A DNA stretch of 12,233 nucleotides, taken from Nitrospirota bacterium (GTDB lineage: Bacteria > Nitrospirota > UBA9217). The stretch covers positions 1-12,233 of the forward strand of contig CAVUHW010000023.1 in assembly GCA_963741205.1 (NCBI GenBank). Reading direction: 5' to 3'. Below, piece by piece: positions 1-10,848 of this stretch. Both the position numbers and the translations under genes were made by a program. How positions within the stretch are numbered: the stretch's first letter is position 1; each line of letters begins with the position of its first letter. Under the pieces are notes generated by a model, which was not told where the DNA came from, made no database searches, and saw nothing but the letters and a program-made list of their open reading frames with translations.

Positions 1-79
1 CCCCTCCTTTGCAAAATACACGAAAAGCAAAAGAGCGGAATCAAACATGATAAACCTGCCCCTGTGATGTGCCTGGAAA

Positions 80-2215: not shown

Positions 2216-2372
2216 AGTCTGCCCCCAAGTAGTCCTTCACTCATTAAAAAGTATTACCAAGTATGGTAAAGACTGCGTACCTGAACCGGATTTATAATTA
2301 AGTTAGACACACTTTGTTAAAAAGATTTTCATGAGAAGCGCAGCATCAGATGCTTCGCCTGGAGAACAGCAT

Positions 2373-3413
2373 ATGAAAACATATAGTATTGCTGGTGAAG
2401 ACACCGGGACATTGACATTCGGGGACAAACTGCACGACCTCCTGAACAGCCAGATAATTTCACGGCTCATTTATGTCGTCGCAAAGCTTGGCGTCCCTGA
2501 CGTGATGACGGAAGGTGTGATGACTTCAGATCAGATCGCCATTGCCGTAAACGCCGACCCCGGAGCGCTCTACCGCGTCATGCGTACGCTCGCGGCGTAT
2601 GGACTGTTTGCCGAAAAACCGAAAGGCTATTTCGAGCTGACGGAACTCGGGAGTCTGCTTCGGTCCGACCATCCCGATTCGCAGAGGGCATTTGCGATCC
2701 TGGCATGGGAACCCTGGATGCGCGCAGGGTGGGACGGAATCCTTTCAACGGTCTCAACCGGGACAACCGCCTTCAATCGGGTACACGGCATGGGGTTCTT
2801 CGAATACCTGAATAAGCACCCCAACGCGGCCGACCTGTTCAACCGCGCGATGACGAGCCTCACCCGGAAGGAGATCGACTCCATCCTGTCGGTGTACGAC
2901 TTTTCCCGCTTTGCCAAAGTTGCCGACGTGGGAGGAGGCTACGGCGGGTTCCTTGCCGCAATCCTCAAAAAACATCGAAGCGTGGCCGGTATTCTGTTCG
3001 ATCTCCCTCACGTCGTGGAAGGGGCAAAGAACCTGCTGGAAAAGGAAGCAGTGCTCGATCGCTGCACGCTGTCTGCGGGCGACTTTTTTTCCTCGATTAC
3101 GCCGGGAGCGGACGCGTATATCCTGAAGAGCGTCATTCATGACTGGAACGACGAGGAGGCAGTGCGCATTCTCAGGAACTGCCGGGCAGCCGTCCCGGAC
3201 ACAGGGCGGATTCTTGTGATCGAGCGCCTGATCGAAGAGGAAGCCGCGCCATCTCCCGCCAGGATCCTGGACATCGTCATGCTCGTCAATGTGAGCGGCA
3301 AAGAACGAACCGAGGAGGAGTACGGGAGCCTGTTTGCAGATTCGGGTTTCCGCCTGCAGAGGACGATCCCCACGTCGTCAGAGATGAATATCATCGAGGC
3401 AGTGCCGGTGTGA
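2373..3413 (+). CDS. SAM-dependent O-methyltransferase, class 2 (dimerisation domain + Methyltransf_2)
   Basis: GGAG RBS precedes ATG 2373. Motifs VADVGGGYG, LFDLPHVV, GDFF, YILKSVIHDWNDEEA and GKERTEEEY. Confidence 0.93.
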   Translation: MKTYSIAGEDTGTLTFGDKLHDLLNSQIISRLIYVVAKLGVPDVMTEGVMTSDQIAIAVNADPGALYRVMRTLAAYGLFAEKPKGYFELTELGSLLRSDHPDSQRAFAILAWEPWMRAGWDGILSTVSTGTTAFNRVHGMGFFEYLNKHPNAADLFNRAMTSLTRKEIDSILSVYDFSRFAKVADVGGGYGGFLAAILKKHRSVAGILFDLPHVVEGAKNLLEKEAVLDRCTLSAGDFFSSITPGADAYILKSVIHDWNDEEAVRILRNCRAAVPDTGRILVIERLIEEEAAPSPARILDIVMLVNVSGKERTEEEYGSLFADSGFRLQRTIPTSSEMNIIEAVPV

Positions 3414-3536
3414 TTCGATAGTGAAAAAGATCCCGGGGGCCGCAGTGATCGAAAGGACTTTTCCCCCAATCTCTTGCGTCCCCTTTCACTATTTAATAGC
3501 CTGGAAGTCAAGGTGGGTATTTTAAATTGGTGCCAG

Positions 3537-3707
3537 GGGCCGGACAGGCCCTTGGTCTTGGCGAGCTATACGCCTGCCGGGATTCCGCCCCCGACAGGGA
3601 TAAGGAAGAGCATTAACACGGAAAACATGATGGATATTAGCAAAAGTGCCGGCCAAAGGCAAGCGGCGGGGCGGGTTTCGTATTGTGGTATTTGGCTAAG
3701 GCATCTG
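3537..3707 (-). pseudogene. Direct repeat copy 2: truncated, nonsense-mutated 5' fragment of the membrane protein gene with its leader
   Basis: From TTG 3643 it reads LLISIMFSVLMLFLIPVGGGIPAGV* (TTG>TAG at 3566-3568), then LAKTKGL and breaks off near 3537. Confidence 0.85.
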
Positions 3708-3823
3708 AATTGGAGTCTTAATTCTGATTTGTCAACAAATGAGATTTTACTCCAATTCGCTCCGATGTTAAGCAGTAATTCAGAGAAAAGTCCAACAGTA
3801 TGGACCCTAAGAAGTTTGGTGCC

Positions 3824-4911
3824 CTACACATTAAACCTGAAATTGATCATATCCCCGTCCTTTACTTCATAGGTCTTTCCCTCGAGCCTGAAATGCCCTT
3901 TTTCCCGTGCCGCATGTATACTGCCCGTGGCAATAAAATCATCATAGGAAACGATCTCCGCCCGTATAAAACCTCTCTCGATATCCGAATGTATCCTGCC
4001 TGCCGCCTGCTGTGCATTCATGCCCTTTTCTATGGTCCAGGCCCTGACCTCGTCTTCACCGTAGGTCAAAAAAGATATCAGGCCGAGCAGGTCATACGAA
4101 ACACGGATAAGCTTGTTCAGCGCCGGCTCCTTGATGCCGAGGTCGTCAAGAAAAGCCTTCGCCTCGTCGGGAGAAAGCTGGGCTATCTCCATCTCGATCT
4201 TCCCGCACATGCTCAAGACCGTCACCTGCCGCCCTTTGAACAATGACTGAAGATCAGAGACCGTCTTGTTGGTTGTTTCCGAATTCACTTCCTGTTCAGC
4301 GACGTTCAGCACAACGACCTCGGGCTTGATGCGACATGAACTGCAGATGGCGCATGGCCTTCAGGTCCTCCCCGGAAAAATCCGCATCCCGGAGCGGCTT
4401 CTCGGATTCCAATATCTCCCTGCATTTGAGCAAGAGCTTCTTTTCGCCCTCATCAGGCTTCTTTCCCCTCTTCTGGCCCTGCTCCATCCGCTCCAGCCGT
4501 TTCTCGACCAGTTCAAGATCGCCGAAGATCATCTCCATCTCCAATCGTCTGGGCATCTCTCTGCGGGTCGACCGTGCCCATGGGATGGGGCACTGACTCG
4601 TCCTGAAAGCCCCTCACAACATGCACGAGCGCGTCTGCATCCTTGACAAGGTCGAACACCTTCCGGTTCTGCTCCATGTCGCCCTTGGTCAGTCCGATAT
4701 AATCAACATACTCAACCGTTGCATAGGTGGTCTTCTTCGGCTTGTATATCTCCGAAAGCTTGTCGATCCTGCTGTCCGGCACCTTTACGACGCCATGATG
4801 AGGTTCTGCTGTCACGGTAGCATAGACCGTCGTCTCCAAATTCAGACCCGTAAAGGCATTAAATATCGTTGTCTTTCCTGAATTCGCAAGTCCCGTAATG
4901 GCTATCTTCAT
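3824..4911 (-). CDS. ychF: Redox-regulated ATPase YchF (Obg family), split by two +1 frameshifts (~4551, ~4331); sequencing error or pseudogene
   Basis: GLANSGKTT P-loop, VKVPDSRIDKLS, YVDYIGL, ADALVHVVRGF, EVRAWTI, AGRIHSDIERGFIRAE and EGKTYEVKDGDMINFRFNV. AAGGAG RBS. Removing 2 nt gives 361 codons. Confidence 0.92.
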
Positions 4912-4936
4912 TTTTTTCTCCTTTAGAACCGCTTAA

Positions 4937-4960
4937 GGGCCAGGTCTTTACTGTTAACAT
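4937..4960 (-). repeat. REP-like end motif downstream of RAYT (minus strand ATGTTAACAGTAAAGACCTGGCCCT)
   Basis: 4943-4960 is the reverse complement of 5840-5857 at 17/18 positions and overlaps the RAYT stop codon. Confidence 0.8.
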
Positions 4961-5808
4961 CAGCCCCGTTCATTCATTATCCGGCTGATACTGGCATAGT
5001 GCATACCGAGATGATTGGCAATTTCTCGCTGGCTGTACAGATGTTTCTCAACTGCCTCTGCTATTTTCCGATCCCGCTTTTGCTTATCTCGAATTATCGT
5101 CTCCGTGAATATTCTCTCGAGGAGCGGTCTGTTCGCATACCGCTGACTCTTGGGTATCTCTGGAACATCCTTGTGCTTCTTGAGATAATCAACCAGTCGT
5201 TCGGCAAACGCTTCCTCTCCCAGGATGGCCTGACCCCTGACTTCCGTCCAGATATTTTTATCCGATCCCCATTGAACAAACTGCCGGTATTCCTGCTCAG
5301 CCTTTCCCCTCTTTCCGCCGAACTGACCCAGAACCCAGTCAGTGGTAAGGCATGGATGTCGATCCTCCCGTCCGGCCGTCGCCCGGTAGCTGCCCCATTT
5401 CCATGCATTCGGCGCTTCAACCATCTTTGCCCTGACTGGATTAAGGACAACATACCGGCATACTTCGAGCAGGTGGCTATCTTTCTGGATAAGGATAGAC
5501 TTATACCTTCCCTGGAGCAGATGACCAGTTCGTCCATGCAGTTTGTTAAAAAGTTGTGTGTATACACCGTTTAGCTGCCGCATGCCGATAGAGAGATTGC
5601 CGTCAGGGGTCTCGATCAGCAAATGGTAATGGTCATCCATGAGGCAATAGGCGTGGCAGATCCAATTATATCGTTTGTTGACATGCTGGAAGATGTTGAG
5701 AAAATTGATCCGGTCCTGGTCGCTTTTAAAAACGGCTTTCTTTTCATTGCCGCGGGAGGTGATATGGTAGACCGCACCGGGATATTCTATTCGGAGTGGA
5801 CGGGCCAT
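4960..5808 (-). CDS. REP-associated tyrosine transposase (RAYT; Y1/HUH, IS200-like) with C-terminal HTH
   Basis: MARPLRIEYPGAVYHITSRGN N-terminus, HUH motif AYCLMDDHYHLL, GHLLQGRYKS, catalytic Tyr in RYVVLNPVRA and HTH YSQREIANHLGMHYASISR. Confidence 0.92.
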   Translation of the reverse strand: MARPLRIEYPGAVYHITSRGNEKKAVFKSDQDRINFLNIFQHVNKRYNWICHAYCLMDDHYHLLIETPDGNLSIGMRQLNGVYTQLFNKLHGRTGHLLQGRYKSILIQKDSHLLEVCRYVVLNPVRAKMVEAPNAWKWGSYRATAGREDRHPCLTTDWVLGQFGGKRGKAEQEYRQFVQWGSDKNIWTEVRGQAILGEEAFAERLVDYLKKHKDVPEIPKSQRYANRPLLERIFTETIIRDKQKRDRKIAEAVEKHLYSQREIANHLGMHYASISRIMNERG

Positions 5809-5817
5809 AATAGACAG

Positions 5818-5846
5818 ACGGTAGCAATAAAAGAGGCCAATGTCAA
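5818..5846 (-). promoter_or_regulatory. Putative RAYT promoter with its -35 inside the end motif; leaderless mRNA
   Basis: TTGACA (5841-5846)-17 bp-TACCGT with TG extension, 9 nt upstream of ATG 5808. No RBS. Confidence 0.5.
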
Positions 5847-5863
5847 CAGTAAAGACCCTAAGA
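5840..5863 (+). repeat. REP-like end motif upstream of RAYT (ATGTCAACAGTAAAGACCCTAAGA)
   Basis: Inverted partner of 4943-4960, and 18/20 identical to 3793-3812. Confidence 0.8.
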
Positions 5864-6237
5864 GGTTACGCGGGGCCTGCCCTGCGTATCGAGCGCCACG
5901 TAGGTGAGATAGGCCGTGGCCGCATTCCGCACTTCGCCGATGATGAGGTTCTCGGCTTCGACCCGCACGCCGATCTCCATGGAGGTTTTGCCCACGAGGT
6001 TCAGGCCTGCAGTGACGGTCAAAAGGTCTCCCTCAAACACGGGGGTGTGGAAATCCATGCGGTCGATGGAGGCGGTGACCACATTGGACCGGGCATGGCG
6101 TGACGCTACCACGCCCGCCGCCTCGTCGATGAGTTTCACGACCACGCCGCCGTGAACGTTCCGGCAGGGTTGGCGTCCCGGGGAATCATCATCTGCGCCA
6201 TAACGACCGTGCTGTCCTGCACCCGCTTTCCTTCCAT
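5858..6237 (-). pseudogene. Acyl-CoA thioesterase (YciA/hotdog family), -1 frameshift near 6160, C-terminus apparently truncated at the RAYT end motif
   Basis: GGAGG RBS precedes ATG 6237. Reads MEGKRVQDSTVVMAQMMIPRDANPAG/NVHGGVVVKLIDEAAG...VGKTSMEIGVRV...YLTYVALDTQGRPR, then stops inside the motif. Confidence 0.8.
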
Positions 6238-6374
6238 ATGCACACCTCCCGTTTGTGACAGGTACTCATTGTATCAGAACCGGTTGAAAACGAGTCTTCG
6301 CGAACGTCCATCCACCTCGTTTTATTCCCGATGCCCTATTAAAAAACAGTGATCATCAAAGTTCTTCAATTTCG

Positions 6375-6403
6375 TTGTAATTATCAGGGCCGTGAAGTAT
6401 AAA
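6375..6403 (+). promoter_or_regulatory. Putative sigma70 promoter of the DUF1848 gene
   Basis: TTGTAA-17 bp-TATAAA. Confidence 0.4.
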
Positions 6404-6432
6404 GAATATATCCTCATTGAGAAGGTCGATAC

Positions 6433-7338
6433 ATGATCATAAGCGCAAGCAGAAGAACCGATATACCTGCTTTTTACAGCGACTGGTTCCTGAAACGCAT
6501 TGAAGAGGGTTTCGTAATGGTTCGGAACCCCATGAACCCCCGTCAGGTCAGCAAGGTTTCTTTGGAGCCGGGAGCGGTGGATTGCATCGTCTTTTGGACC
6601 AAGAACCCTGCGAACATGATCGGTAAGCTCACGTACCTTGAGGAAAGAAAGTACAGCTACTACTTCCAGTTCACCCTTACGCCGTACAACAAAACGATCG
6701 AACCGAATCTGGCGCCTAAAGATGACGTGATCTCAACCTTTATCGCGCTGTCTGAGCGGATCGGCAAGGAGCGGGTTATCTGGCGGTACGATCCGATTCT
6801 TTTCACGAATGAGCTGGACAGGGAATATCACTACCAGTCCTTCGAATCCCTGGCAGGGAAACTGGCGGGCCATACCGATAAGTGCGTCATCAGTTTCGTG
6901 GATTTCTACGCAAAATGCCGTAAGCGGCTTACGAGCCTGAACGCCAGAGAGATAACCCGGGAGGATATGTACGCCGTCGCGCGTGCCTTTGCCGGCATAG
7001 GAAAAGCACAGGGTATAAAGATCGAGACGTGCGCTGAAGAAGCCGATCTTTCGGAGTTTGGTATTGTCCATGGGAAGTGCATCGACGATGGGCTTATTGC
7101 AAGGATCACCGGACGGCAGCTTGAGGTGAGGAAGGACAAATCGCAGCGAGAACTATGCGGCTGCGTCGCCAGTTTCGATGTGGGCGCTTACAATACATGC
7201 TTTTTTAACTGTCTTTATTGCTACGCGAACAATGGCAAGGAGGTGGTAACGGAGAAGACCGCAAACCATAAACGAGAGTCCCCCCTGATGAAGGGCGACT
7301 TAGAAGATAGCGACAATGTTTGTCTTAAAACCAGTTAA
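6433..7338 (+). CDS. DUF1848 domain-containing protein (radical-SAM-like CxxxCxxC at the C-terminus)
   Basis: Family signatures MIISASRRTDIPAFYSDWF, VFWTKNP, WRYDPI, CAE, CID, CGC and YNTCFFNCLYCYAN. Confidence 0.92.
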   Translation: MIISASRRTDIPAFYSDWFLKRIEEGFVMVRNPMNPRQVSKVSLEPGAVDCIVFWTKNPANMIGKLTYLEERKYSYYFQFTLTPYNKTIEPNLAPKDDVISTFIALSERIGKERVIWRYDPILFTNELDREYHYQSFESLAGKLAGHTDKCVISFVDFYAKCRKRLTSLNAREITREDMYAVARAFAGIGKAQGIKIETCAEEADLSEFGIVHGKCIDDGLIARITGRQLEVRKDKSQRELCGCVASFDVGAYNTCFFNCLYCYANNGKEVVTEKTANHKRESPLMKGDLEDSDNVCLKTS

Positions 7339-7525
7339 CTTATTTCCTGCCATTCTCCCCTTTCTGAACTCCATTATTTTATCCCTACGAGACGGTAATC
7401 GACAATTGTAACACCGCAAGACCTGATAATCATATAAAGGGCACCTCCAGAGCATACCAGAACGGTTAAGCTCTGATATGCTCTTGGGAAAGACGACCAA
7501 TCTTACCAATCCCAGGAGGTGCTTT

Positions 7526-8616
7526 ATGAGATTGTACACAGGAATTGATCTGCATTCAAGCAACAGTTATCTGGCGATCATCGATGAAACCGGTAAGCGG
7601 GCTATTCAAGAAGAAGCTGCCGAATGATCCGGGACAGATCATTTCGAGCCCTGCGCCATACAAGGATACGACATTACCGGTATCGTCGTCGAGTCTACGT
7701 ACAACTGGTACTGGCTGGTGGATGCTGCTCATGGCGGAGGGATACAAGGTGCATCTCGCCAACCCCAGCGGCGATCACAGAAATATACCGGGCTCAAGTA
7801 TTCAGATGATCAGCATGATGCCTTTTGGCTGGCCGAAATGCTGCGACTCGGCATCCTGCCCGAAGGCTACATTTATCCGAAAGAAGACCGACCGATCCGC
7901 GACTTGTTGCGCAAACGAAGTCATCTGGTAAGGCTCAGGACTTCGCTCATCATCAGCCTGCAGAACATCGTCTGCCGCAACAACGGGTTAGGCTCAAAGA
8001 CGAACGACGTCAAGGCATTGAAGACGGACCGGGTTGCGCCGTTTCTCGCGGAGAACGAAGACCTGGCTTTGGCCGGCAAGGTCAGCAAGGAGTACCATAG
8101 ATTTTCTGACCCGTCAAGATCAAAACCATTGAGACGTTATCGAAGGGAAAGGTGGAACTGCGCGAACCATACAAAAATCTCCTCACGTTCCAGGCAGTCG
8201 GTAAGATTCTGGGACTTACCATCATGCTGGAGACCGGCCCGATCAGCCGCTTTCGAGAAAGTCGGCAACTATTGCTTCCTACTGCCGGAAAGGTTTCGAG
8301 CAAATGGATCAGCAACGATAAGGCGAAAGGCAAAGGGAACAAGAAAAGCGGCAACAAGTATCTGGCGTGGGCCTTTTCCGAAGCTGCCGAGATCGCCCGG
8401 CGCTATTATCCGAAGGCCCGGGCATATTACAACCGCAAGATGCAGAAGACCAACTTCATGATAGCGCATCAAGCCCTGGCCCACAAACTGGCGCGGGCGG
8501 CATATTACATCATGAGGGATCAAGTGCCGTTCATGCCGGAGAAGATGTTTACACAGAGTCATAGGCTGGCTGGGACGGTGAACCTGACTTGGGGTTGGCA
8601 AAACCACGAGACCTGA
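7526..8616 (+). pseudogene. IS110-family DEDD recombinase/transposase with multiple frameshifts
   Basis: AGGAGG RBS precedes ATG 7526. Pieces across frames: MRLYTGIDLHS, IVVESTYNWYW, KYSDDQHDAFWLA, DRPIRDLLRKR, WISNDKAKGKGNKKSGNKYLAWAFSEAA and ALAHKLARAAYYIM. The true 3' end is probably near 8555. Confidence 0.88.
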
Positions 8617-8937
8617 TTGGTAATCCGTCCCACCCTTTATATATAGCGTTATCAGCATCTTTACTGCCCATGCCGTGAGCCATCTTGGGGCTGGTTAACA
8701 ACCATGAGACCTGTACAATCATTGGACACGGCATGGAACCGAAGATTTTCTGGTCCGCCATAAGGCGGAAAGGGTCATGGATAAAGAGCTTCACCAATGA
8801 CCTTAATCCTGATGGGTGACTGGTGCAGTGAAGACTGACACCGAAACCGAATGAAACTGCGGCAATGGTAAGGATGAAGATAACGAAAAGGCTCGGCGAG
8901 AAACGTTCCGTTTCTCGCCACAAGATAGCTTTTTTCG
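8571..8937 (+). ncRNA. Putative bridge/seek RNA: two target-binding loops + one donor-binding loop
   Basis: Three units of the form GA(A/G)CCN-guide-TGG...CC(A/T)-guide-..TGG at 8571-8632, 8668-8736 and 8736-8823. The guides match the target and the donor junction. Confidence 0.75.
8884..8937 (+). terminator. Strong hairpin closing the IS 3' non-coding region
   Basis: GGCGAGAAACG-ttc-CGTTTCTCGCC (8895-8919) sits within CGAAAAGGCT/AGCTTTTTTCG. Confidence 0.55.
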
Positions 8938-9055
8938 CTTGACGGTGCCCTTTAAATGGGTGACCCTCATGATTCCCTTAACCCTAAAGGTTCCCTTTTC
9001 AGACACAATGTCCCGGAGTTGTACTTTCCACCCGGCGATTCAAGCGGCAAGAGAT

Positions 9056-9457
9056 CTACTTCATTTTGAGCCCGCCGTTCGCCGGGGAATATTCTCCGAG
9101 CTTCTTCCCGGTCTTCTGGTCGATGACCAGAACAATATTCTTTTGCGGATCTTCTGTTTTATAATAGGCCCAGACCGCATTGAGGATCTGTTCCTTCTCT
9201 TCGATCGATAACTCGATGAATTGCCGGCCGACCAACACGCGGGTAACGGGACTATTGTCCTCGATCTTGGAAATGATGCCGAGTTTGATCGTGTCCTTTA
9301 TAAAGGCGAGTCTTTTCTGCTGCAATTCCGGATCGCCACGATGCGCTGTTTTTTTGTTTGCTGAAGTCGCCTGGGGAAAGGCCTTCCCGTTCGCTGCGAT
9401 TAAAACGACAACCAATCCGATCCCGAGAAACCGTGTCCATCTGAAAGACAAATGCAT
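9056..9457 (-). CDS. Hypothetical exported protein (133 aa)
   Basis: GGAG upstream, N-terminal signal/TM segment FLGIGLVVVLIAA, and protein-like composition. Confidence 0.7.
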   Translation of the reverse strand: MHLSFRWTRFLGIGLVVVLIAANGKAFPQATSANKKTAHRGDPELQQKRLAFIKDTIKLGIISKIEDNSPVTRVLVGRQFIELSIEEKEQILNAVWAYYKTEDPQKNIVLVIDQKTGKKLGEYSPANGGLKMK

Positions 9458-9544
9458 TTTGATCTCGCTCCGAAACCACCAAGGAAACGTTGTTGCACCC
9501 TTGCGTCGCCCACGTTCTCTCTGTCATTACCTGAGACCCTTGAT

Positions 9545-9562
9545 GGTCAGGTCTTTAATGTT
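9545..9562 (-). repeat. REP-like motif copy (minus strand AACATTAAAGACCTGACC)
   Basis: Same family as the RAYT ends and the IS target. Abuts the stop codon of the HAD gene at 9563. Confidence 0.7.
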
Positions 9563-10711: not shown

Positions 10712-10848
10712 CTAGTGGTTGTCCATTAGGCAATGCGCACGGCAGATCCAGTTATAGGGTTAATTCACATGCTGGCGGTGTTCAGAAAATTGATCCGGTC
10801 CTGATTGCACTTGAAAACGGCTTTCTTTTCATTGCCGCGGGAAGTGAT
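10712..10848 (-). pseudogene. Degenerate fragment of a second RAYT gene
   Basis: Aligns to 5626-5763. Reads ITSRGNEKKAVFKCNQDRINFLN...YNWIC..CLMDNH*, with a frameshift and TAG in the HYH motif. Confidence 0.85.

Follow-up and report, generated by a model that had tools for sequence, protein, structure and literature searches.

The stretch of DNA analysed here, referred to as the window, is the whole 12,233-nt contig C23 (CAVUHW010000023.1) from assembly GCA_963741205.1 of a Nitrospirota bacterium (50 contigs, 84% complete). It carries an insertion sequence (IS) of the IS1111 group within the IS110 family and, 1.6 kb from it, a gene for a RAYT-like Y1 (HUH) transposase, TIRYT, with long terminal inverted repeats (TIRs) on either side in the manner of the elements called TIRtrons. 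Further TIR copies stand alone as solo ends, and the IS lies in one of them. Based on the anatomy of the IS, the covariation of its putative guides with its flanks, its insertion sites in relatives and the association of the target motif with TIRYT genes, we consider it very probable that this is an RNA-guided element targeting the box at TIRtron ends. Relatives were retrieved by DNA searches across 60 related genomes, and cross-genome scans are counted out of 61.

Anatomy and class of the insertion sequence

The limits of the IS were set by homology with 18 full-length relatives, which are 74–90% identical to it and are accompanied by many fragments; the similarity starts and stops at two TG dinucleotides, one at each junction (7424–7425 and 8961–8962). 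The left flank ends in ..TGTAACACCGCAAGACC at 7423, followed by TG, and the right end of the IS reads ..CCCTTTAAATGGG (..AAATGGG) at 8960, followed by TG and ACCCTCATG from 8961. Joining the flanks via one TG rebuilds an empty site, ..GCAAGACC-TG-ACCCT.., in which the IS interrupts the sequence AAGACC-TG-ACCCT. All strings quoted in a preliminary description of this contig are present no more than 1 nt from where it had placed them, the quoted 24-mer needing position 4936, and the resemblance it had noted between the empty site and the ends at 4937–4959 and 9545–9562 was confirmed, the core of that site being shared.

The subterminal inverted repeats are perfect over 11 nt and show one mismatch when extended to 14 nt. 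With the 14-nt repeat, the left terminal extension amounts to ~6 nt (ATAATC) plus the core, and the right one to 3 nt (GGG). The non-coding ends are asymmetric, with ~100 nt on the left and ~400 nt on the right (8565–8960), the latter 3' of the transposase gene. According to PMC11187229, the IS1111 group has subterminal inverted repeats of ~11–13 bp, with left extensions of ~6–7 nt and right ones of 3 nt; the repeat, short left end, right extension and downstream non-coding region are likewise described as group traits in PMC11208160 and PMC11187229. The window element displays the subterminal inverted repeats and the long downstream non-coding region of this group, as well as its two transposase domains, the N-terminal DEDD (RuvC-like) PF01548 and the C-terminal PF02371, with PF01548 above its cut-off in the intact relative L004.

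Compared with four close relatives, the transposase frame shows 10 insertion events totalling 11 nt; 17 of the 18 relatives' copies contain an open reading frame (ORF) of 339–359 amino acids (aa). The ORF pieces of the window reach 39.7 bits for PF02371 (cut-off 21.3) and, in the broken frame, 21.2 bits for PF01548, which is under the cut-off of 29. L004, 90% identical in its DNA, encodes an intact 342-aa transposase that passes both Pfam models (71.5 and 45.7 bits) and matches the NCBIfam model transpos_IS110 ("IS110 family RNA-guided transposase") at 178.1 bits vs. 140. Five other IS110-family transposase genes (G000 C5:5568–6596, C41:14223–15251, C9:13292–14320, C32:2312–3199 and C12:49134–49895) are only distantly related to that of the window, with 23–28% identity.

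A putative guide RNA and its covariation with the flanks

The non-coding region at the right end is predicted to contain a target-binding module resembling a seekRNA or bridge RNA. The consensus fold (RNAalifold on 12 sequences) comprises a conserved outer stem (8568–8578 with 8625–8635), a 3-bp stem (8582–8584 with 8619–8621) and a hairpin (8596–8598 with 8604–8606), and the two sides of its internal loop are the only strongly variable stretches. The 5' side, CTTGGGGT (8588–8595), is complementary to the right target flank on its top strand: its reverse complement, ACCCCAAG, equals the ACCCTAAG of the motif save for one G-T wobble, and the CTTAGGGT carried at this position by close relatives is a perfect match to ACCCTAAG. 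The 3' side, GAGACCTG (GAGACC-TG, 8608–8615), copies the left flank and core, AAGACC-TG. This order, with the top-strand complement first and the bottom-strand match after it, agrees with that reported for IS1111-family seekRNAs (PMC11187229).

Guides and flanks change together across relatives. In a set of 11 IS lineages with differing flanks, scored by the longest common substring and compared with 10,000 permutations, the left flank and the 3' guide shared a mean of 6.18 nt in cognate and 3.52 nt in non-cognate pairs (0/10,000 permutations), and for the right flank against the reverse-complemented 5' guide the means were 5.18 and 3.60 nt, respectively (4/10,000); these lineages are kin, which makes the permutation counts look more independent than they are. 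Even so, at least eight distinct target sequences have guides of their own that match them. The guide RNA is presumably made and bound. Among public sequencing runs, no RNA run was listed as containing this sequence, and the best DNA run contained 0.11 of the sampled words.

Two further segments of the same region also follow the flanks. A second stem-enclosed internal loop of similar build has a 3' segment that covaries with the left flank (1/10,000 permutations) and a 5' segment that does not do so convincingly (1120/10,000). Farther downstream, a segment mirrors the right junction, and the dinucleotide after its core equals that of the flank in nine of 11 lineages (1/10,000). This segment recalls the handshake guides of IS621 but differs from them (PMC11208158), and the IS621 bridge RNA has two loops where the non-coding region of the window has more modules.

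Insertion sites in relatives

Close copies of the IS, defined as pieces at least 85% identical to that of the window, abut the same motif. All nine of their left ends adjoin RGACY-TG, and 11 of 16 right ends adjoin (T/C)G-ACCC exactly, with four more at one mismatch and one that does not, so that insertion at the TG of the motif, anticipated by the preliminary description, is seen at 15 of 16 right ends with one mismatch allowed. When pieces of all identities are included, the motif is found at 10 of 25 left ends and, of 39 right ends, at 20 exactly and at seven with one mismatch. Ends with other flanks belong to relatives with other guides; the more distant ones (74–78% identical) have flanks matching those guides.

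The left flanks of the IS copies that sit in the motif have different TIR interiors and thus represent independent insertions. An IS left-end fragment (G020:C72) and a full-length IS (G014:C5) lie 20–30 nt past the stop of a TIRYT gene, inside its TIR, and the remaining sites are solo TIRs within the 500–1500 nt of flank examined. Two IS copies are succeeded by tandem duplications starting with TG. Co-occurrence of the two partners across genomes, suggested earlier as a test, is uninformative: 46 of the 61 genomes contain TIRYT homologues and 34 contain IS-related DNA, and one genome (G004) has IS pieces and no TIRYT match. In another relative (L037, G011:C3), a tandem duplication covers the final 15 nt of the IS (CCCTTTAAATGGG plus TG), and the true flank beyond it matches that element's own guide.

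The Y1 transposase element and the target motif

The TIRYT protein scores 49.3 bits against Pfam Y1_Tnp PF01797 (cut-off 23) and 87.7 bits against NCBIfam REP_Tyr_transpos (cut-off 80). At least 8000 homologues occur in the protein collection at E ≤ 0.001, several of them named RayT or transposase of Nitrospirota, and the named ones come from Nitrospirota metagenome bins. The sequence contains H60-Y61-H62 and Y102 (RYKS), which by analogy would be the catalytic residues. It extends ~140 aa past the Y1 domain; helix-turn-helix matches at residues 247–281 are all below cut-off (best HTH_37, 18.3 bits vs. 27), and PF13384 is precomputed on two of 120 listed homologues. Most TIRYTs have been placed in TnpA-REP subclass 2.1, with a C-terminal helix-turn-helix, by Quentin et al. 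(2018, PMC6006769). A sequence search of the PDB returned weak KtrA-type matches over residues 196–254 only and no Y1 transposase.

We surveyed 130 nt on each side of 40 full-length TIRYT homologues. The motif is present upstream (inverted) in 34, downstream in 35 and at both ends in 31, compared with 0.003 per 130 nt as background. Homologues without the paired motif include the window's own, whose upstream end lacks one GACCY unit (5 nt) and with it the TG core, and one with a downstream end interrupted by this very IS. The two TIRs of one element agree over ~25–35 nt, and the interiors differ between elements. The tip, AGAC(C/T/G)-TG-ACCC(T/C), is kept even in homologues at 37–57% protein identity and reads (A/G)GGGTCAG on the other strand; the box is GGGGTCA(G) in the distant homologues L064, L068 and L072, AGGGTCAG in the window's clade and AGGGCCAG in the downstream TIR of the window, whose reverse complement is TGTTAACAGTAAAGACCTGGCCC over 4937–4959 and ..AACAGTAAAGACCTGGCCCTTAAG over 4937–4960. 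In relatives the Y1 gene is multicopy, with at least seven uninterrupted full-length copies in G019 and at least four each in G003, G014 and G026.

Based on these traits the neighbouring element, introduced in the preliminary description as a RAYT, is better called a TIRYT within a TIRtron. As described by Di Nocera et al. (2013, PMC3733652), TIRtrons are RAYT-like TIRYT genes flanked by long TIRs that share a GGGGWSAS box, and the TIRs also occur singly or grouped. The window element is alike in its RAYT-like Y1 gene, long TIRs and GGGGWSAS-type box; it differs in that the box of its clade fits seven of the eight positions and in that copy number is IS-like in some relatives. The classical RAYT/TnpA-REP label was considered and set aside: the Y1 signature fits it, but the repeats are TIRs rather than repetitive extragenic palindromic sequences (REPs), the gene is multicopy in relatives where RAYT genes are typically single-copy, and with only 29 TIR-related sites the genome falls short of the abundance typical of REPs. 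The proposal that the IS lands in repeats propagated by a RAYT consequently holds in one half, as the guides specify the motif that ends the Y1-flanking repeats, and needs correction in the other, the partner being a TIRYT. The TIRYT presumably spreads these repeats.

Within the genome, AAGACCTGACCC occurs four times vs. 0.6 expected from base composition. At no more than one mismatch, AGACCTGACCC has 87 sites, 29 of which lie in DNA homologous to TIRtron ends (23–245 nt), and 23 of those 29 are on C23, C24, C26 (348–373 kb) and C28, with interiors of several types. The motif copies stand in both orientations and in no fixed relation to genes. A genome-wide count had been suggested earlier, and the motif indeed proved to be both multicopy and linked to TIRYT.

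The site occupied by the IS (..ATTGTAACACCGCAAGACC) matches the upstream TIR of an element in genome G035 as well as an unoccupied, near-identical copy at C26:348912 (-), and its TIR subtype is unlike the neighbour's own (..AACAGTAAAGACC). The neighbouring TIRYT is therefore a member of the targeted family and not the parent of the occupied copy, so that the earlier view of both partners lying side by side is borne out as to distance and must be relaxed as to kinship. A search for an IS-free empty site in the same genome found the DUF1848 paralogues (C21, C19) and the C24 copy of the 133-aa gene with other neighbours, and yielded just the paralogous TIR at C26:348912.

Table 1 Features of the window that bear on the insertion sequence, its target and the Y1 element (position 1 is the first letter of the window).
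Feature	Position	Strand	Remarks
IS1111-group (IS110 family) insertion sequence	7424–8960	+	Limits of homology vs. 18 full-length relatives; 1537 bp counting one TG core
DEDD transposase gene	7526–8564	+	Frame broken into three ORF pieces
Left subterminal inverted repeat TAAAGGGCACC	7435–7445	+	Partner GGTGCCCTTTA at 8944–8954
Target-binding module, seekRNA/bridge-RNA-like (predicted)	8568–8635	+	RNAalifold: 16 pairs, 2 compensatory; guides covary with flanks
Second stem-enclosed internal loop, similar build	8660–8740	+	CTTGGGGC at 8684–8691, GAGACCTG at 8706–8713
Junction-mirroring segment GATGGGTGAC	8811–8820	+	Last nucleotides of IS, TG core and first 2 nt of right flank
Occupied target, left half: solo TIR of another subtype, CGACAATTGTAACACCGCAAGACC	7400–7423	+	
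Right core TG and right target flank ACCCTCAT	8961–8970	+	
TIRYT, RAYT-like Y1 (HUH) transposase, 282 aa	4960–5808	-	Sole full-length copy in assembly (tblastn)
Downstream TIR of TIRYT	4937–4960	-	Minus strand ..ATGTTAACAGTAAAGACCTGGCCCTTAAG; unoccupied target-like site, one mismatch (G for A after TG)
Upstream TIR of TIRYT	5837–5868	+	Inverted vs. 4937–4960; short form ..AACAGTAAAGACC-CTAAGAGGTT
Solo TIR copy AACATTAAAGACCTGACC (then ATCAAGG)	9545–9562	-	Directly past stop codon of HAD-family gene
Solo TIR copy, short form ..CCAACAGTATGGACC-CTAAGAAG	3790–3815	+	Orthologous C26 and C24 sites are long form, with GACCT
Degenerate TIR-like copy AATCAAACATGATAAACCTGCCCCTGTGATG	33–66	+	C26 counterpart at 362465 matches upstream TIR of a relative

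Proposed targeting and alternative explanations

In the mechanism that we favour, the circular IS would go in at the TG of AAGACC-TG-ACCCTAAG. The 5' guide CTTGGGGT (CTTAGGGT in close relatives) would pair with the top strand of the right flank ACCCTAAG, and GAGACC-TG would pair with AAGACC-TG, the left flank and core, on the bottom strand. This 16-mer target is the outer tip of the TIRs of RAYT-like Y1 elements, its opposite strand holding the GGGGWSAS-type box, and in the window the IS occupies one such solo end at 1.6 kb from the sole full-length TIRYT gene. As TIRtrons are multicopy and leave solo ends behind, the genome offers many equivalent and mostly intergenic landing sites. Since the tip of the motif is the GGGGWSAS box, the core TG of the IS falls inside that conserved box, and insertion presumably disables the TIR. 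The heptamer CTTGGGG, found at 8588 and 8684, had also been proposed to pair with CCCTAAG tails at 3805–3811 and 5856–5862. It does so with one G-T wobble; however, both sites fall 5 nt short (GACC-CTAAG): the right half is kept, but the TG core is gone and the left half shifted, and they should thus not be targets.

Several observations weigh against RNA-guided targeting of TIRtron ends. The actual right flank, ACCCTCAT, pairs with the guide over just four Watson-Crick pairs and one G-T wobble. The second loop and the junction-mirroring segment are unaccounted for by a simple picture of two guides, and an Rfam scan of the whole window gave no match at E ≤ 1, which means only that no curated family covers the RNA. 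The 84%-complete assembly contains a single full copy of the IS besides a 90-nt fragment of its right end on C24, from which it follows that targeting cannot be demonstrated from this genome alone, and the full copy, with its broken frame, may be dead. This last point leads to the most serious alternative, namely that the IS of the window is an inactive relic, an old insertion with a decayed transposase and a drifted guide (A to G in CTTGGGGT) that merely records past targeting. We regard this as possible, albeit somewhat improbable. It would explain the insertion events in the coding sequence where nearly all relatives' copies have intact ORFs, the departure of the guide from the CTTAGGGT of close relatives and the solitary full copy. 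However, every change in the transposase is an insertion, which is an error-like pattern, and conservation is good in the non-coding RNA region and at both ends. Furthermore, assembly error appears to be as likely a cause of the transposase frameshifts as decay, because the conserved gene ychF on the same contig and on C26 also contains single-base insertions (two and three different ones, respectively), with an intact copy of 373 aa on C24; such a pattern in ychF indicates errors of assembly or consensus in place of decay and suggests mixed strains in the assembly. The IS copy presumably is, or once was, active.

Other alternatives concern the target itself. If the boundaries of the IS were mis-set, the halves of the motif could be part of the IS or of a larger duplicated segment, and their likeness to TIRs could reflect shared ancestry. 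BLAST alignments with close relatives do extend 5–7 nt past the TG on both sides; yet the motif is often present in IS-free form (68 aligned TIR ends; 29 sites in the genome), flanks are unrelated in relatives whose IS termini are the same, and close copies have flanks that bear no relation to each other past ~25 nt. These observations contradict the reading and leave it scarcely credible. It is also very improbable that the motif is the site of another recombination system, integron attC-like or Xer/dif-like, with the Y1 gene and the IS as cargo. Most C23/C24/C26 breakpoints lie at or near motif copies, and C23 has 4.6 kb between two direct copies where C26 has one, which speaks for such a system. 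The copies, however, have mixed orientations and no fixed gene relation, and the motif has no dyad symmetry and, on reading, shows neither an attC R''/R' pair nor a second Xer arm. Its constant partner is the TIRYT gene, with both ends present in 31 of 40 homologues, and the attC and Xer/dif readings were rejected on these grounds. A bolder variant of TIRtron targeting casts the IS as a dedicated TIRtron parasite that remodels the ends, its core splitting the GGGGWSAS box and disabling recognition by the Y1 protein. The TG-starting duplications, the bracketed C24 fragment and the core-less short TIRs would then be scars of repeated or aberrant RNA-guided recombination at this site, the three modules of the RNA would be two target-reading loops and a junction-mirroring segment, and gene modules bounded by the motif would be shuffled as a by-product; we consider this variant unlikely.

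Comparison with known systems

Elements of the IS110/IS1111 type that insert in REPs include IS621 of E. coli, ISPa11 of P. aeruginosa and ISPpu9 of P. putida, as described in PMC11208160, PMC11187229 and PMC12288879. They share with the window element a DEDD recombinase, an element-encoded RNA guide, a multicopy extragenic repeat tied to a Y1 family as target, a dinucleotide core and scarless insertion. Unlike in these REP-targeting elements, the repeat here is the tip of the long TIRs of a multicopy TIRYT and not a GTAG-type REP hairpin. In contrast to IS621, the core is TG rather than CT, and it is the right end that contains the guide RNA, as in the IS1111 type. IS4321, an IS1111-family element with subterminal inverted repeats, reportedly targets a terminal inverted repeat that belongs to a different transposon, at the ends of Tn21. 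The host in that case is a Tn3-family DDE transposon, whereas here it is a small Y1 (HUH) element whose solo ends are hit too. The closely related ISs of the IS1111-attC group (ISKpn4, ISPst6 and others) all recognize one conserved class of recombination site, attC, by seekRNA, according to PMC11187229; their target is the integron attC and not a transposon end.

Within the literature examined, no paper pairs TIRYT or TIRtron with IS110 or IS1111, papers naming only TIRYT or TIRtron not having been individually checked. Homing of one mobile element into the ends of another is a known habit, and the TIRtron end-box is new as a natural target. With it, the list of natural IS110/IS1111 targets (REPs, attC sites, Tn21 ends) would gain a member from a poorly studied class of RAYT-like elements. 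The at least eight naturally reprogrammed relatives with known flanks should be useful for deriving the guide rules of the less-characterized IS1111-type RNA, its second target-like loop and junction-mirroring segment among them. For annotation, TIRtron ends and their targeting would account for the cluster of short repeats, the mosaic breakpoints and the assembly breaks in this lineage.

Mosaicism of the contig and minor observations

C23 forms a mosaic with C26 and C24 (93–97% identity). Its breakpoints at 3803, 4942/4951, 5870, 9526 and 9563 lie at or within ~20 nt of motif copies, and those at 6264, 6416 and 7339 do not. The downstream TIR of the TIRYT (4937–4960) is the right breakpoint of homology with C26; the solo TIR at 9545–9562, which matches the downstream TIR of a relative's element over 26 nt at 96%, is where homology with C26 and C24 has its left breakpoint. 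The 4.6 kb of extra DNA (4952–9562) between these two direct copies, which on C26 correspond to a single one (C26:367422–367443), is situated between the HAD-family gene and ychF and holds the TIRYT, a thioesterase gene, a DUF1848 gene, the IS and a 133-aa ORF. The three ychF copies of the assembly (window 3824–4911 (-), C26:366250–367440 and C24:19400–20590) are 93–95% identical.

Remnants of TIRtrons are present elsewhere in the assembly, among them an internally deleted TIRtron of ~230 bp with both TIRs at C26:353864–354078 and other TIRYT fragments. In the window, positions 10715–10848 (-) are homologous to TIRYT residues 16–60, with counterparts on C24 and C26; by its sequence this fragment is a relic of another TIRtron. 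Short-form TIRs are not enriched across the 61 genomes, where CAANNNNAWRGACCCTA has 16 matches and its reversed control also 16, vs. 32 matches for the long-form pattern CAANNNNAWRGACCTGACCCTA and none in its control. The two short-form TIRs on the contig could be assembly artefacts.

Perfect tandem duplications of 14–18 nt that start exactly at the TG were found at five of 69 TIR ends vs. seven of 2340 random TG positions. Examples are the TIR ends L092, L088, L078 and L056, the right IS flanks L035 and L010, and C24:8370–8420 in G000; in one, TGACCC plus unique flank forms the unit, which is repeated twice. The right-end fragment of the IS on C24 (C24:10192–10304, L002) lies between 17-nt direct repeats, TGACCCTAAGAGGTTCC, with an internal junction at TG, and could be a product of aberrant recombination.

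Other repeats were also noted. A 177-nt direct repeat (2012–2188 and 3534–3710, 90% identical) flanks a methyltransferase gene (2331–3413), and the same pair occurs on C26. C26 also contains four partial copies (83–89% identical; near 360.5, 363.4, 363.5 and 370.4 kb) of a ~170-nt repeat at 865–1036 that bears no relation to the TIR motif.

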